Origin: Escherichia coli
GTDB lineage: Bacteria > Pseudomonadota > Gammaproteobacteria > Enterobacterales > Enterobacteriaceae
Assembly (NCBI RefSeq): GCF_044324875.1
Contig: NZ_CP172185.1
Strand: one strand, 5' to 3'
DNA: 64,000 nt
A program made the position numbers and the translations under genes. Each line of letters starts with the position of its first letter. The stretch's first letter is position 1. The notes beneath the pieces were generated by a model that was not told the origin of the DNA, did no database searches, and was given only the letters and a program-made list of their open reading frames with translations. Below, piece by piece: positions 4,740 to 17,561 of the stretch.

Positions 4740-5111
4740 ATGCGTCTGGAATTTGTTTTGCCTTACCCGCCGCCGGTGAACACTTACTGGCACCGTCGTG
4801 GTGGTAAGTATTTTGTATCAAAAGCGGGGGAACGTTATCGTCGTGATGTCAGGCTTATTGTTCGCCAGCAGCAACTGAGATTAAGGCTGACCGGAAGACT
4901 GGGTATAAAAATCATCGCAGACCCGCCAGACAACCGCCGCCGTGACCTGGACAACATACTGAAAGTACCGCTGGATGCGCTGACCCATGCGGGGCTGCTT
5001 ATTGATGACGAACAGTTTGATGAAATTTATATCGTGCGTGGCGTGTCAGTACCTGACGGGCGTCTGGGAGTGAAGATTTACGAAATTACAGGTGGTAACA
5101 ATGGCGCGTGA
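4740..5111 (+). CDS. rusA: Holliday junction resolvase RusA
   Basis: 123 aa; RusA-like sequence with conserved acidic residues ([16 protein letters not shown]); RBS GGAAGGAGGGGA upstream. Confidence 0.85.
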
Positions 5112-5526
5112 TATTCAGCAGGTTATGGAGCGATGGGGGGCATGGGTGGCGAATAACCACGAAGACGTGGAATGGTCATCCATTGCCGCCGGATTCAAGG
5201 GGCTGATACCGTCAAAAGTAAAATCGCGACCGCAGTGTTCCGATGATGACGCGATGATTATCTGTGGTTGTATGGCTCAACTGAACCGGAACAACAGTGA
5301 TTTGCATGAATTGCTGGTTGATTACTACGTGTGTGGGATGACGCTGATGAAGTTAGCAAGGAAACATGGATGTTCTGATACGCATATTGGAAAGCGTTTG
5401 CAAAAAGCTGAAGGAGTGGTTGATGGCATGTTGATGATGCTGGGAGTAAGACTTGAGATGGATCGGTATGTGAGCGTAAATTATTCGATGTGCCGTAAAA
5501 CTCCGTCCTTCAGGGCAGGGATATAA
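5101..5526 (+). CDS. Late-gene antiterminator Q-like protein
   Basis: About 141 aa, directly upstream of the tRNA/lysis region; N-terminus [15 protein letters not shown] resembles the short Q type of Stx-family lambdoid phages as recalled; Cys-rich. Confidence 0.6.
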
Positions 5527-5536
5527 GGCGTACAGG

Positions 5537-5566
5537 ATAAATAAAAGAACGGGCGCAAAGCGCCCA
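5537..5566 (-). terminator. Rho-independent terminator for the opposite-strand porin gene
   Basis: Hairpin GGGCGCAAAGCGCCC followed on the minus strand by a T-rich run. Confidence 0.55.
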
Positions 5567-5709
5567 AGTATAAACAACAAAAAACGGTAATAAATAACAG
5601 AAAGTCCGTTGGAAAAGTTAAGTACTGTCCAACGTTTTGCAGTGGCATGAGGGCACCACTTTATATGTCAGAAAAGTTTCACTCTCCCGACATATTCTTA
5701 CAAAACAAA

Positions 5710-6813
5710 TCAGAACTGATAAGTCAAACCAACAGCGACAATATCATCGGTTAATACATCAGTTCTTTCAGTGAATTGATTCTTATCAAGCAGGTTGATT
5801 TTATAGTCTACGTATGTAGACATATTTTTGTTGAAGTAATAAGCAGCACCGACTTCAATGAATTTTTCAATGTATCCGTCATTATGTTTTTCAGGGATAC
5901 CAGTTTTGGTGGAAAGGTCTTTGGCTTTCGACTGGATATAAGCAAGAGACGGGCGCAAACCAAAGTCGAACTGATACTGTGCAACTACAGCGAAATCTTC
6001 AGTTTTATTGGCTACACCGTTGTAGCCGCCGGGCGAGTACTTGATTGCGCGGGTATTACGTGTTTCACCATAAGTGGCTGCCAGGTACAGATTATTCGCG
6101 TCATATTTTACGCTGGTAGCCCACTGTTCAGCTTTTTTACCTTTACCAAAAGTCGTCGCTTCCTGTGCATTGGTGCGATCGGCTGCACCATATGCAGCTA
6201 CAAAACCAAAGCCTTCATATTCATAACTGACAGAGCCGCCAACACCGTCGCCGTTTGAAGTGCCTGCATTGTCACGCTCATTTTTACCCAGATACTGAAC
6301 CGCAAAGTTCAGTCCATCAACCAGACCGAAGAAGTCGGTATTACGGTAAGTGGCAACACCACCTACACGACCCACGAAGAAGTTATCCCCGTTAACAGAA
6401 CCAGGCCCAAATTCAGGGAGGACATCAGTATAGCTTAATGCGTCATACACCACGCCATAGTTACGACCATAATCCAGAGAGCCAATATTTTCTAGTTTCA
6501 GGCCAGCGTATGCCAGACGGGTTTTGTCTCCTGCAGAGCCATCTTTTTCTGCCTTGTTGCCTTTGAATTCATATTCCCATTGACCAAAACCAGTTAACTG
6601 ATTGTTGATTTGGGTTTCACCTTTGAATCCAAGACGGGCATAAGTTCCATCACCTTCTTCTTTGGCGTTAGAAGAAAAGTAATGTTTACCCACTACTTTG
6701 CCATATAAATCCAGTTTATTACTGTTTTTATTATATATTTCTGCTGCATTTGCAGACATTGCCAGAAATACTGATGCTGCTACAGCAGAAAGTGCCACTG
6801 TTAAATTTTTCAT
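5710..6813 (-). CDS. Outer membrane porin (OmpC/NmpC family) moron
   Basis: Signal peptide [29 protein letters not shown], porin-type beta-strand composition, C-terminal aromatic residue; same position and orientation as nmpC in DLP12-type prophages. Confidence 0.85.
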
Positions 6814-7411
6814 TTTTTATCCTCTGGTGGGAGTTAATTGGACGACAAAATGCTATCAGGATGAAAATTTAATTTCTGTGTATAATGTATACAAGGAAAA
6901 TTAAGGAGTCCGATTCTTTATATGTGACCACCATCACAAAATAAGAAGTCATGCAAGCTAATAAATAGATGGCTATCTTTCACTCAAAAAATTAAGATCA
7001 ATCTTTTTTATTAGAAGTGCTAAATATATTTAATTATTTGGGGTTGTGAGTTATTTATATAACCTTAATAAAGACATTACTTTTGAAGAAAAATACGTGC
7101 ATAGAAGAATGCATAATCTTTAATTACATCTTGCCAAGCGTCGCAACAATCCAGAGATTGTATGTGGGGTGAATCATGCAGCATGCAGGGTATGAACAAA
7201 CACTTTACGATCGTAAAAGTATGCATATCATGGTAAGAGTGGTTCCTACGCCACACAACTTAAACCCGCAGCCAGGCGGTTTTTTACATCGAAAATCTGC
7301 ACCGGACATTAAGCTCTTTGGCGGACCAGATAAGAGGTGCGCTTAGTTGGGTTTGTCGGGCTTTCTCTGAGATTTGCGGTATTAATCCCGTAACGTTATT
7401 ATGCTGCTCGA

Positions 7412-7487
7412 GGCCCTTTAGCTCAGTGGTGAGAGCGAGCGACTCATAATCGCAAGGGCGCTGGTTCAAATTCAGCAAGGGCCACCA
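7412..7487 (+). tRNA. tRNA with anticodon CAU, ileX/ileZ-like (tRNA-Ile2 reading AUA, or Met)
   Basis: Cloverleaf folds by hand: acceptor GGCCCTT/AAGGGCC, D-arm GCTC..GAGC, anticodon loop CTCATAA, T-arm GCTGG-TTCAAAT-TCAGC, 3' CCA; close to recalled E. coli ileX. Confidence 0.85.
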
Positions 7488-7488
7488 A

Positions 7489-7565
7489 CCGCTACTAGCT
7501 CATCAGGAAAGAGCGTCAACCCTTTAAGTTGAGTGCGCTAGGTTCGATTCCCCGCTGGCGGTCCA
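7489..7565 (+). tRNA. tRNA-like element, probably degenerate (arg-tRNA-like architecture)
   Basis: Acceptor 6/7 bp, good D-arm and perfect anticodon stem, canonical T-loop TTCGATT, but T-stem has 2 mismatches and loop CCTTTAA lacks U33; ends CCA. Confidence 0.35.
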
Positions 7566-7980
7566 GCGCCGACTTACCTCAGTCGGCAGAACAGTTTAGT
7601 TGTAACCATCAGGCCACCACTTCAATTCCGGTAGTCGGCACTAAATTTCCAAGCTCGTGCTCACGGCCTGCTTCATATCCGCGCCAGGTCCGTCGCGATT
7701 AAACCACAGGGCTTTTCAGGAGGGGCCACAGAGAGCGTCACACTGACCATTCCCTGTGGCTTGTGCTGAGATCCGGTCAGTGAAATTGTGCAAAGGGAAT
7801 CTTCGGGAGCTTTGGGCAGAATGTCAGTTATTGATGTTGACATCCTCCACACCCTGAAGGTCGGGGTTTTACGGCGCACTGGATAAAATACCTGAACAAA
7901 CAGCCTCTTCGTGCGGCTTTTTTATAACGAGATTCTGACTTGCTGCCGTCCGTAATGTCGGATGGCGGAGGTGAGGGACT

Positions 7981-8253
7981 ATGAGAATGGACGAACGATA
8001 CAGTAACGCTGCATACGGCAGCGCAGGACTTGTTGCGTTCTTTGCCAGCCTGTCACTGCAGGATTGGGGATTTATTATCGGCGTGGCGTTCAGTATCATT
8101 CTTGGCGTTCTTACTTATCGCCTTAACAAACGGGAGCAGGAAAAACGAACCCGCATATTGCTCGAAATTCTGGAACGAACTAATGCCGGTAATGTTCCGG
8201 CTACGGCACATGCTGTGGCTGAGATTGCGAAAAAGGCACCAAAAGAAATATGA
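7981..8253 (+). CDS. Holin (two predicted transmembrane segments; dual-start MRM motif)
   Basis: 90 aa, hydrophobic stretches LVAFFASLSL and FIIGVAFSIILGVLTY, charged C-terminus; SD GGAGGTGAGGG; immediately upstream of lysis genes. Confidence 0.6.
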   Translation: MRMDERYSNAAYGSAGLVAFFASLSLQDWGFIIGVAFSIILGVLTYRLNKREQEKRTRILLEILERTNAGNVPATAHAVAEIAKKAPKEI

Positions 8254-8409
8254 CGAATATCCCGGGAGTGAGGGGATAATATACCTTTTAACAAAATCCG
8301 GGAACATGAAACGCCCGGAACGTTTCATGAGGCATGCCCCGTGGGGAGCAGGGCATAACTGTGCGGAATAGCTTTCATTGTGATATCAATAATCACGGTA
8401 TTCAAAATA

Positions 8410-8787
8410 TTACGGGCCTGTGGGATCAGGTTGTTTTTTGTCTGATTCCAGAGGGAAGGGACGCTGTTTCGGTTCTCTGAACTTTAGTGATAATGAATTG
8501 AAAATCCTCATTTTTTGCTGCCATGCATAATGTCTGTCCCATGAACAGGGGGGGCTCAATTCTTCATTCACCCATGCGTTAATATCTTGTTTCAGGTGTT
8601 GAAGCATACGGGGTGTTAATGCACTCATAATAATATCCAGCGTTTTATGCGAGAGTTTACCGTAAGGGTCTGCAAGGATGCTGCTCGTTGCTTCGTTATT
8701 ATCCACCATAAGTGGAAGTAGCGCTGATTTAACTTTTTCTGTCATTAGTTGCAAAAATCTACTGCGCAAATTTTCTTTACTGTTCAT
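8410..8787 (-). CDS. Hypothetical protein (125 aa) on opposite strand between holin and endolysin
   Basis: Clean ORF in an otherwise plus-strand late operon; no recognised domain. Confidence 0.45.
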   Translation of the reverse strand: MNSKENLRSRFLQLMTEKVKSALLPLMVDNNEATSSILADPYGKLSHKTLDIIMSALTPRMLQHLKQDINAWVNEELSPPCSWDRHYAWQQKMRIFNSLSLKFREPKQRPFPLESDKKQPDPTGP

Positions 8788-8910
8788 TTCTGAAGCCTCA
8801 TCTGTTGTCGTTTGGTTTTCCTGAACGGGTATGTTTATGAGACATGCTGGTACTGGATTATATACCTGATATATCCAGGATTATAAACCTTTAGATCCTG
8901 ATAAATATAC

Positions 8911-9444
8911 ATGAACGCAAAAATCAGATACGGCCTGTCGGCTGCCGTTCTGGCGCTGATTGGTGCTGGCGCATCTGCTCCTCAGATACTTGATCAGTTT
9001 CTGGACGAAAAAGAGGGTAACCACACAACGGCATACCGCGATGGGTCCGGCATCTGGACCATCTGTCGGGGTGCCACGATGGTGGATGGAAAACCCGTTT
9101 TTCCCGGAATGAAGCTGTCGAAGGAAAAATGCGACCAGGTTAACGCTATTGAACGTGATAAGGCACTGGCATGGGTGGAGCGCAATATTAAAGTACCTCT
9201 GACCGAACCACAGAAAGCGGGTATTGCGTCATTCTGTCCCTATAACATTGGCCCCGGTAAGTGTTTCCCGTCGACGTTTTATAAGCGGCTTAATGCCGGT
9301 GATCGAAAAGGCGCCTGCGAGGCGATTCGCTGGTGGATAAAGGATGGTGGGCGTGACTGCCGTATCCGTTCAAATAACTGCTATGGACAGGTTATTCGTC
9401 GTGACCAGGAAAGCGCATTAGCCTGTTGGGGGATAGATCAGTGA
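8911..9444 (+). CDS. Endolysin, lysozyme with N-terminal signal-anchor-release (SAR) domain
   Basis: 177 aa; N-terminal hydrophobic [16 protein letters not shown]-x8-D-x5-T catalytic spacing ([16 protein letters not shown]). Confidence 0.85.
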
Positions 9445-9908
9445 GCAGAGTCGCCGCGATTATTTATGCTCTGGTTATCTGCATCATCGTCTGCCTGTCG
9501 TTGGCGGTCAATCATTACCGTGATAACGCCATAGCCTACAAAGAACAACGTGATAAAAAAGTCAGTGAGCTGAAGCAGGCGACCGCCACCATCGCTGACA
9601 TGCAGCAGCGTCAGCGTGATGTTGCTGCGCTCGATGCAAAATACACGAAGGAGTTAGCTGATGCGAAAGCTGAAAATGATGCTCTTCGGCGCAAGCTTGA
9701 TAATGGTGGCAGGGTGCTCGTCAAAGGAAAATGCCCTGTGCCATCCTCAGCCGAAACCTCCAGCGCCTCCGGCATGGGCAATGATGCCACCGTCGAACTC
9801 TCTCCAGTTGCTGGACGAAACGTTCTCGGTATCCGGGACGGAATTATCCGCGACCAGACAGCACTGAGAACGCTTCAGGAATACATCAGGACGCAATGCC
9901 TTCGATGA
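9441..9908 (+). CDS. Rz-like inner-membrane spanin (i-spanin)
   Basis: N-terminal TM segment [19 protein letters not shown] then coiled-coil-like region; probable GTG start overlapping endolysin stop. Confidence 0.65.
9661..9867 (+). CDS. Rz1-like outer-membrane lipoprotein spanin (o-spanin), embedded in Rz in +1 frame
   Basis: Lipobox MVAGCSS, proline-rich [11 protein letters not shown]; fully nested within Rz. Confidence 0.6.
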
Positions 9909-16066: not shown

Positions 16067-17561
16067 TCTTTCACACATTATTGCCGCAGCATTCAATGAA
16101 CCGCTGCTTCTGGAGCCCGCCTATGCGCGGGTTTTCTTTTGCGCGCTCGGGCGCGAGATGGGGGCAGCAAGTCTTTCGGTACCACAACAGCAGGTACAGC
16201 TTGATGCTCCCGGAATGCTGGCTGAAACGGACGAGTACATGGCCGGAGGTAAACGACCGGCCCGTGTTTACCGGGTGGTGAACGGTATTGCTGTACTGCC
16301 GGTGACCGGCATGCTGGTGCACCGGCTGGGTGGTATGCGGCCATTTTCCGGAATGACAGGCTATGACGGCATTGTCGCCTGTCTTCAGCAGGCAATGGCG
16401 GACACCGCTGTCCGGGGCGTACTGCTGGACATTGACAGTCCGGGCGGGCAGGCCGCAGGCGCGTTTGACTGTGCTGACATGATTTACCGCCTCCGTCAGC
16501 AGAAGCCGGTCTGGGCACTGTGCAATGACACGGCCTGTTCTGCAGCCATGCTGCTGGCGTCGGCCTGCTCCCGACGGCTGGTTACCCAGACATCCCGTAT
16601 CGGCTCCATTGGCGTGATGATGAGCCATCTCAGCTATGCCGGTCATCTGGCGCAGGCCGGTGTGGATATCACGCTGATTTATGCCGGGGCGCACAAGGTG
16701 GATGGCAATCAGTTTGAAGCCTTACCGGAAGAGGTGCGTCAGGACATGCAGCAGCGCATTGATGCGGCACACCGGATGTTTGCCGAAAAAGTGGCGATGT
16801 ATACCGGGCTGTCTGTGGATGTGGTCACGGGAACAGAGGCCGCCGTTTTTGAAGGTCAGTCCGGCATTGAGGCCGGGCTGGCGGATGAATTAGTCAATGC
16901 GTCGGATGCCATCAGTGTGATGACCACGGCGCTGTACACACATGATACAGGAGGCACTATGCCGCAATTAACTGCAACGGAAGCCGCCGTGCAGGAGAAC
17001 CAGCGAGTGATGGGGATCCTGACGAGTAAGGAAGCGAAAGGACGTGAACAGCTTGCCACGATGCTGGCGGGACAACAGGGCATGAGCGTTGAACAGGCCC
17101 GGGAGATCCTGGCCGCGGCGGCACCACAGCAGCCGGTGGCATCCGCGCAGAGTGAAGCCGATCGCATTATGGCGTGTGAAGAGGCGAAAGGTCGTGAACA
17201 ACTGGCGGCAACGCTGGCGGCGATGCCGGAGATGACGGTGGAAAAAGCCCGCCCGATCCTGGCAGCTTCACCGCAGGCGGATGCCGGACCATCACTCCGT
17301 GATCAGATCATGGCCCTGGATGAGGCAAAAGGGGCTGAGGCGCAGGCTGAACAGCTGGCTGCCTGCCCGGGAATGACCGTGGAGAACGCCCGGGCTGTGC
17401 TGGCTGCGGGGTCAGGTAAGGCAGAACCGGTCTCTGCATCCACAACCGCCATGTTTGAACATTTCATGGCGAACCATTCACCGGCAGCGGTACAGGGTGG
17501 CGTGCCACAGACGTCAGCAGACGGTGATGCGGACGTGAAAATGCTCATGGCCATGCCATGA
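16056..17561 (+). CDS. C: Head maturation protease/scaffold (lambda gpC/Nu3-like, S49 family) with C-terminal tandem repeats
   Basis: 501 aa; ClpP/S49-like N-terminal half; C-terminus has three repeats EAKGREQLA...ILAA. Confidence 0.85.
   Translation: MRRNLSHIIAAAFNEPLLLEPAYARVFFCALGREMGAASLSVPQQQVQLDAPGMLAETDEYMAGGKRPARVYRVVNGIAVLPVTGMLVHRLGGMRPFSGMTGYDGIVACLQQAMADTAVRGVLLDIDSPGGQAAGAFDCADMIYRLRQQKPVWALCNDTACSAAMLLASACSRRLVTQTSRIGSIGVMMSHLSYAGHLAQAGVDITLIYAGAHKVDGNQFEALPEEVRQDMQQRIDAAHRMFAEKVAMYTGLSVDVVTGTEAAVFEGQSGIEAGLADELVNASDAISVMTTALYTHDTGGTMPQLTATEAAVQENQRVMGILTSKEAKGREQLATMLAGQQGMSVEQAREILAAAAPQQPVASAQSEADRIMACEEAKGREQLAATLAAMPEMTVEKARPILAASPQADAGPSLRDQIMALDEAKGAEAQAEQLAACPGMTVENARAVLAAGSGKAEPVSASTTAMFEHFMANHSPAAVQGGVPQTSADGDADVKMLMAMP
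17031..17420 (+). repeat. Three in-frame tandem repeats (about 147 nt) in C/Nu3 C-terminus
   Basis: Repeated peptide units EAKGREQLATMLAGQQGMSVEQAREILAAAAP / EAKGREQLAATLAAMPEMTVEKARPILAASPQ / EAKGAEAQAEQLAACPGMTVENARAVLAAGSG. Confidence 0.7.

Follow-up and report, generated by a model that had tools for sequence, protein, structure and literature searches.

Introduction

In phage lambda, the late promoter PR' is always on, its transcript (6S RNA) terminates early at tR', and Q-dependent read-through carries transcription into the lysis genes, the same logic as that proposed here for a prophage of Escherichia coli. The lambda leader is 194 nt long, compared with about 48 nt in the present locus, and Q-lambda belongs to a different protein family from the Q21-type Q proteins.

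The latter family includes Q of phage 21 (curated record OL657228; structures 6P18 and 6JNX) and the Q studied here. The phage 21 record gives, in order, the -35, QBE, -10, start, SDPE and a terminator at +3 to +50, followed by tRNAs and the holin gene; its Q-binding element consists of two directly repeated 8-bp sites located between -35 and -10, and its pause element, TAAGCT, occupies +2 to +7. Q21 forms a ring that constricts the channel through which RNA leaves the polymerase and thereby prevents terminator hairpins from forming (bioRxiv 10.1101/651190).

In Shiga toxin (Stx) phages, the late promoter overlaps the 3' end of the Q gene. In strain Sakai, the PR' start was mapped by dRNA-seq and Term-seq 258 nt upstream of the tR' 3' end, and the mapped terminated RNA of 258 nt ends at a second terminator, at +258, giving StxS (PMC7547250). 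The lysis operon of the K-12 prophage DLP12 is also reported to be under a Q-type antiterminator (PMC7918800), and there the order of genes is Q (quuD), an opposite-strand porin gene (nmpC), the PR' module in the nmpC-essD spacer, and the lysis genes.

Here we analysed a 64,000-nt stretch of the E. coli contig NZ_CP172185.1 (hereafter, the window), and in particular the interval between its porin gene and its tRNA cluster. We conclude that a lambdoid prophage of the H-19B/DLP12 type very probably has its late-gene switch (PR' and tR') at 7204-7285, and that this switch is an ordinary further member of the well-known Q-dependent late cassettes.

Results

The interval lies between Q and the lysis genes of a lambdoid prophage

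The window carries a lambdoid E. coli prophage in which a RusA gene (4740-5111) and the gene of the Q antiterminator (5092-5526, plus strand, 144 aa) are followed by an OmpF/OmpC-like porin gene on the minus strand (5710-6813), a tRNA cluster (7412-7644, plus strand) and, on the same strand as Q, a putative holin gene (7981-8253, sub-threshold Pfam holin matches only), which would be the first lysis gene of the late operon, a lysozyme gene (8911-9444) and an Rz gene (9426-9908). The interval under study (6814-7411) is bounded on the left by the porin start codon and on the right by the first tRNA (7412-7487). Its 598 nt match the LH50-c chromosome at 100% identity, only 4 of the 5426 complete E. 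coli genomes have it, and the NCBI annotation of the matching genomes has no feature under it. Identity to LH50-c falls after about 7476; for the corresponding region of that strain, the NCBI annotation lists genes for a holin, lysozyme and lysis protein, with a terminase further downstream.

The late-gene switch is confined to about 7194-7411, the left part of the interval (6814-7193) being the upstream region of the porin gene. Of the elements of a Q-dependent cassette, the window has an upstream Q gene on the same strand, a sigma-70 promoter, an intrinsic terminator and downstream lysis genes.

A predicted late promoter homologous to PR' of Stx phages

The preliminary description of this DNA had anticipated, upstream of the lysis genes, a late promoter followed by a short leader and terminator, had been unable to place the promoter by eye, and had proposed promoter prediction and a comparison with the late promoter/qut regions of related phages. 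Both approaches bore out this expectation. Promoter scanning and homology placed PR' at 7204-7231 on the plus strand, with a -35 hexamer TTTACG (7204-7209), a 16-bp spacer and a -10 hexamer TATCAT (7226-7231), and the two hexamers are the same as those of VT1-Sakai, H-19B and Sakai Sp5 (Stx1 and Stx2a phages). By blastn against phage records, 7194-7285 (to 7289) was 77-78% identical over 92 nt to VT1-Sakai and H-19B, and 346 records, mostly of Stx phages, matched at 78% identity; megablast against the same records gave no match, the 92-nt module being detected only by the more sensitive blastn. In the VT1-Sakai record (AP000400), the matched segment is labelled 'putative late promoter', 'putative Q-utilization' and 'putative rho-independent terminator for pR' transcript'. 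The alignment of the window with H-19B and VT1-Sakai has in common TTTACG, TATCAT, an invariant TAAGAGTGGTT...CAC and a GC hairpin with a T-run, and the palindrome over the -35 hexamer and the distance to the hairpin and T-run are also the same, as they are in Stx2a phages of the Sp5/933W type.

The module is widespread: the query 7190-7411 matched 3446 of 5426 complete E. coli genomes, almost all matches being to the PR' module. In all loci compared, its orientation is fixed towards the lysis genes. In K-12, the DLP12 module is 76.7% identical over 86 nt; it differs in the centre of its palindrome (TA, AT in the window), in its -10 hexamer (TATGCT) and in its stronger hairpin, and there are no tRNAs between module and holin, unlike in the window. 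The layout of the window (promoter, very short leader with a terminator, tRNAs, holin) is also that of phage 21, although we found no DNA homology between the PR' cassettes of the two.

On the strength of this homology, PR' is predicted to be active in the window. Its start was placed by using only the published 258-nt distance, counted back from the U-run of the Sakai terminator, and the published absolute coordinates were not transferred, the Sakai genome compared here being a later version. Transcription would thus start at about 7238 (7238-7239), at the A or G of TAAG-AG. This position lies in the invariant core (TAAGAGTGGTT.C...G.CAC, 7234-7254, plus strand), the most conserved stretch in every comparison, which probably contains the signals for pausing and loading that RNA polymerase reads. 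The look-alike of the phage 21 pause element, the invariant TAAGAG, lies here at -4 to +2 (TAAGAG(T) at -4 to +3) and not downstream of the start. A search for a -10-like pause element downstream of the start gave no convincing candidate, the H-19B candidate TACATT corresponding here to TCCTAC or TACGCC and being poorly conserved.

A conserved and covarying hairpin follows the promoter

The hairpin reported in the preliminary description is exactly where it had been placed, with arms CCGC (7266-7269) and GCGG (7276-7279), a loop AGCCAG (7270-7275) and a run of six T (7280-7285). Taken alone, it is unremarkable: its folding energy is -6.1 kcal/mol (z = -1.0), 33 of 200 shuffles folded as well, and it was not listed by the terminator scan because the scan requires at least 5 pairs. 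It goes beyond chance only when compared with its relatives, and it is by homology that we regard it as real. Using 120 IMG/VR contigs with the invariant core as the homologue set, we found that 60 of 69 distinct homologous leaders have a GC-rich hairpin and T-run at the corresponding position, compared with 9% of 3450 dinucleotide shuffles. The arms varied widely, with 31 different pairs including CCCGC/GCGGG, CCCGT/ACGGG, CCTCGC/GCGAGG, CCCTGCCA/TGGCGGGG and CCGCCA/TGGTGG. We then built a covariance model from 12 sequences; searching 72 sources with it yielded an alignment of 57 distinct homologues, which, being fitted to the model, leans towards structure; in this alignment, five of the nine pairs of the terminator helix had changes on both sides that were compensatory, 90% of terminator cells were paired, compared with 40-54% when the partner was slid, and none of 500 shuffles matched the observed covariation score.

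Within this family, the window has GCGGT where the consensus is GCGGG, and hence four G-C pairs instead of five, one pair fewer than the H-19B/VT1-Sakai hairpin, with a T-run one base longer; the homologous hairpins have folding energies of -11.2 kcal/mol (H-19B) and -12.0 kcal/mol (DLP12). The hairpin with its T6 (7266-7285, plus strand) is thus, as judged from its homologues, a weakened intrinsic terminator (tR') of the PR' leader, and because of this weakness (four G-C pairs, -6.1 kcal/mol, z -1.0) termination may be leaky. Elsewhere in the window, another hairpin with a T-run (CCCGCCTATGCGCGGGTTTTCTTTT, 16115-16140) resembles that of H-19B PR'; it gave a weak blast match and presumably lies in the structural gene region.

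This weakness lends itself to another explanation, in which the hairpin has decayed or merely attenuates, so that PR' transcripts mostly always reach the tRNAs, and lysis is held back elsewhere (beyond the tRNAs or by low promoter strength) or late control has been lost. The gap between -6.1 kcal/mol and the -11 to -12 kcal/mol of the H-19B and DLP12 homologues and the failure of the scanner to list the hairpin speak for it, as do the degenerate-looking second and third tRNAs, which suggest some decay of the locus. So does the behaviour of the Stx phages: since their mapped terminated RNA is 258 nt long (PMC7547250), their first hairpin is not the main stop and lets transcripts pass on to the +258 terminator, and the window lacks both this second terminator and the extra 200 nt that lead to it. 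Nevertheless, several phage contigs that otherwise look intact (L011, L026, L057, L115 and L129) share this four-pair variant and its longer T-run, as expected of a tolerated functional form, and the DLP12 sequences that we read from the promoter to essD contain no terminator-like hairpin other than the homologous one. Moreover, terminator scanning and folding found no strong terminator between 7286 and the holin gene of the window, the candidates for a second terminator before the tRNAs or the holin being weak (7374-7393; and 7902-7924, at -5.3 kcal/mol, z -0.4). With the second terminator absent and no strong one before the holin, the first hairpin is the only candidate for tR' in both the window and DLP12. 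We therefore consider a decayed or merely attenuating hairpin unlikely, and retain the reading of a weakened terminator in an otherwise ordinary Q-dependent switch.

The predicted terminated RNA and the leader beyond it

The RNA from about 7238 to the T-run would be about 48 nt long and is predicted to fold into two small hairpins. The first of these, a 5' stem-loop (GUGGU-UCCUAC-GCCAC, 7239-7254), has a folding energy of -6.3 kcal/mol (z -3.2); its pairs are invariant in the collected set, and covariation is therefore uninformative for it. The whole 174-nt leader, taken as a structured RNA, was indistinguishable from shuffles (z -0.74). In Rfam, only tRNAs matched within 5000-9000 (E up to 1); as the PR' region of an Stx1 phage has no meaningful Rfam match either, this silence is uninformative.

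The precedent of StxS, an Hfq-binding sRNA derived from PR' (PMC7547250), raises the question of whether the RNA of about 48 nt acts in trans as a regulator, besides being a by-product of antitermination. Its architecture is sRNA-like, with a 5' hairpin, a single-stranded ACAACUUAAAC and a 3' hairpin with a U-tail, and the linker is conserved beyond the needs of a spacer. StxS is transcribed from PR' of a phage with the 144-aa Q (PMC7547250), and a homologous PR' and a 144-aa Q are both present in the window. Yet the functional form of StxS comprises the last 74 nt of the 258-nt RNA, which hold the rpoS-activating seed, and a blastn comparison of this short form from VT1-Sakai with the whole window gave only chance words of 10-12 nt. 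The homology of the window to the 258-nt Stx RNA stops just after the first hairpin, and the element was thus ruled out as an stxS gene, its functional 74-nt part being absent. Conservation of the linker is equally explained by pausing and Q-loading signals acting at the DNA level, and Rfam has no such family. A trans-acting role of this RNA is accordingly improbable, more so than decay of the hairpin, and we continue to treat it as the terminated leader of PR'.

Beyond the terminator, the leader continues on the plus strand to a candidate tRNA promoter (7286-7373). Its first ~45 nt (GAAAATCTGCACCGGACATTAAGCTCTTTGGCGG.., about 7286-7334) are conserved in many related phages, and 7335-7372 is an insertion relative to two IMG/VR contigs, L111 and L114. 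The candidate tRNA promoter itself is a promoter-like TTGCGG-17-TATTAT (7374-7402, plus strand) that ends 9 nt before the first tRNA; it lies under the threshold of the scanner (3/6 in the -35 hexamer), and L111 and L114 have TTGCAG-17-TATTAT in its place. A start site driving the tRNAs was reported for an Stx2a phage (PMC7547250). An inverted repeat between the leader (7245-7264) and the second tRNA (7523-7542) was rejected as due to chance, about 10 of 20 positions being kept in L111 and L114 by our own count.

The first tRNA (7412-7487) has a CAT anticodon and is annotated by NCBI as tRNA-Ile in LH50-c, and the second and third (7489-7644) are degenerate-looking tRNA-like copies. The second was called Lys(ttt) by ARAGORN and scored only 31 bits in Rfam, and the third was missed by ARAGORN. 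At these two positions, LH50-c, L111 and L114 have intact Arg(tct) and Thr(tgt) genes; by our reading of the alignment, the copies in the window carry many substitutions, including some in the anticodon and T-loop.

A porin gene is inserted between Q and its promoter

The Q gene lies 1.7 kb upstream of PR', with the porin gene in between on the opposite strand. In every comparison, Q ceases to be homologous to H-19B Q at about 5482, and the promoter block becomes homologous at 7194-7204; in the window, 1.7 kb take the place of about 55 nt of the H-19B arrangement. The Q gene and promoter, which overlap in the Stx phages, are thus separated here by a porin gene inserted in the opposite direction. 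This architecture is a known one, since K-12 DLP12 has the same order, and a separation of Q from its promoter was also found in many IMG/VR loci.

The porin ORF (5710-6813, minus strand) matches Pfam Porin_1 (E 2.7e-127) and scores under the NCBIfam cut-offs for OmpF, OmpC and PhoE; it is transcribed away from PR' and occupies the same position as nmpC in DLP12. The two porins are about 64% identical as proteins, and their upstream regions are unrelated, 6814-7193 giving no alignment with the region upstream of nmpC. On the 3' side, homology to the DLP12 porin locus extends 69 nt beyond the porin stop codon, and a strong terminator of seven pairs, six of them G-C, followed by a T-run, was observed at 5566-5550 on the minus strand. 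In DLP12, a small RNA, IpeX, is encoded just downstream of nmpC.

The AT-rich upstream region (6814-7193, minus strand) has a GC content of 31.6%, compared with 51.9% for the window. It has no match in phage records, and only 4 of the 5426 complete E. coli genomes contain it, with no more distant relatives in that set. In two IMG/VR contigs (L128 and L129), the ~400 nt upstream of the porin are 97% identical to those of the window, with porin proteins only 79% identical; this contrast suggests that the porin gene itself has undergone recombination or diversifying change, as opposed to uniform divergence of a single block. The 5' UTR and promoter of the porin must lie in 6814-7193, where our search for the promoter gave only weak minus-strand candidates, TTGTAT(6894-6889)-17-TAAATT(6871-6866), read by eye, and CTCACA(7050-7045)-16-TATATT(7028-7023), from the promoter scan; because the relatives are either 97% identical (L128 and L129) or unalignable (DLP12), they leave no comparative footprint of it. 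A perfect TATAAT on the plus strand (6880-6888, in ctgtgTATAATg) points towards PR' and is probably a chance promoter-like site of AT-rich DNA.

Given that the porin start codon abuts the interval, that the left 380 nt are AT-rich, as is common upstream of horizontally acquired genes, and that the hairpin alone is no better than shuffles, the whole interval might be read as the regulatory region of the porin only, with a hairpin arising by chance. We regard this as very improbable, because 7194-7289 is homologous to late promoter modules of phages that have no porin, the hairpin covaries, and the module points towards the lysis genes in all loci. A protein-coding role is less credible still: the preliminary description had seen no credible ORF, and rightly so, since ORFs touching the interval do not exceed 68 aa and the ATG-initiated ORF of 56 codons at 7176-7346 has no Pfam family, begins upstream of the homology block, and crosses the promoter, the RNA start and the terminator. 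In H-19B, this DNA encodes the end of Q in a different frame, up to a stop.

An imperfect inverted repeat of 40 nt (core CCGTAAAACnCCGnCCTTCAGGG), of which none would be expected by chance, was observed at 5476-5515 on the plus strand and 7852-7891 on the minus strand; it brackets the porin, PR' and tRNA segment. Its left copy codes for the altered C terminus of Q, and the repeat sequence also occurs upstream of stx1A in VT1-Sakai and H-19B. It looks like a junction for the exchange of phage modules.

The Q antiterminator and the palindrome over the -35 hexamer

The Q ORF (5092-5526) gave a full-length match to PF06530 (Phage_antitermQ, E 5.8e-52) and matched the solved Q21 structures 6P18 and 6JNX (E 2.5e-8). 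It is 78% identical to Q of H-19B up to about residue 127 and divergent beyond, its last ~17 codons (5482-5526) being replaced by residues wholly unlike those of H-19B. This loss of the ancestral C-terminal tail is a counter-point to the reading of the locus as a Q switch, and the last six residues of Q21 contact the polymerase (bioRxiv 10.1101/651190). QuuD of DLP12 (127 aa) is shorter than H-19B Q and is likewise without an H-19B-type tail.

At the left edge of the conserved module, TTTACGATCGTAAA (7204-7217, plus strand), a perfect 14-bp palindrome followed by an A, spans the -35 hexamer and is a candidate Q-binding element. Other phages have other palindromes at the same position (TTTACGTACGTAAA, GCGTACGC, GCGGNCCGC, TTCGTTACGAA, TGTTATAACA, TGTAATTACA, TGTCATGACA or GGAATTCC). 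In about 95 loci, we identified the upstream Q ORF and grouped the Q proteins into clusters at about 65% identity or more. This gave 11 Q clusters, each with one palindrome type, in a one-to-one relation across these loci (about 95). Within the cluster to which the Q of the window belongs, the palindrome differs by its centre or by single-base variants only, and in the window an H-19B-like Q goes together with the palindrome of H-19B. The association was independent of the distance from the end of Q to the core (13 bp to 2.9 kb), and it held with Q 1.4-3.3 kb away. In contrast, the palindrome reassorts freely with the type of leader 60-100 bp downstream, GCGTACGC and GCGGNCCGC each being found with at least four different downstream leader types. 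Since the palindrome tracks a distant Q but reassorts with the nearby leader, linkage alone would not yield this pattern. The simplest reading of this co-variation is that the palindrome would be a Q-specific recognition site and the invariant core a site read by the host polymerase.

This arrangement differs from the direct repeat of phage 21. A similar repeat was sought in the window, and GTAAAAGT (7213-7220) and GTAAGAGT (7233-7240) match at 7 of 8 positions; this candidate was rejected because the resemblance is not conserved in DLP12 or in the GCGTACGC types. The literature that we searched contains no description of a palindrome over the -35 hexamer, which does not prove it undescribed, and the Q-linked palindrome may be new.

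Discussion

The comparison with Stx phages, DLP12 and phage 21 suggests how the switch would work. Host sigma-70 RNA polymerase would start at about 7238 from TTTACG-16-TATCAT, the related Stx promoter being always on, and, as long as Q is lacking, many transcripts would end at the hairpin and U-run (7266-7285), giving the short RNA with its two hairpins. After induction, Q (5092-5526) would recognize the promoter region, most likely at the palindrome TTTACGATCGTAAA over the -35 hexamer, and would load onto polymerase held just past the start on the invariant TAAGAGTGGTT..., to travel along with it. By analogy with Q21, it would narrow the RNA exit channel and block terminator hairpins, and read-through would then proceed via the tRNAs into the holin, lysozyme and Rz genes.

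The pairing of Q types with palindrome types leads to a broader proposal for the H-19B/933W/DLP12 branch of the Q21 family, to which we give an even chance of being correct. The palindrome over the -35 hexamer (TTTACGATCGTAAA here and GCGTACGC, GCGGNCCGC, TTCGTTACGAA, TGTTATAACA or others elsewhere) would set the promoter specificity of each Q, which would imply a two-fold symmetric Q dimer on DNA, unlike the head-to-tail arrangement of Q21 on its direct repeat. The invariant core would be read by RNA polymerase, and recombination in this core would let phages swap their late regions, with each Q keeping its own site. The Q of the window retains its matching target despite the intervening porin gene.

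For the prophage itself, the late operon can now be annotated with a promoter, a transcript start, a terminator and a candidate tRNA promoter. More generally, the 11 Q clusters, each with its own palindrome upstream of a common core, constitute a natural experiment on the specificity of Q and could inform the design of binding and swap experiments, and the pairing of palindrome and Q could help to predict, in strains with multiple prophages, which prophage Q activates which late operon, including those with Shiga toxin genes.
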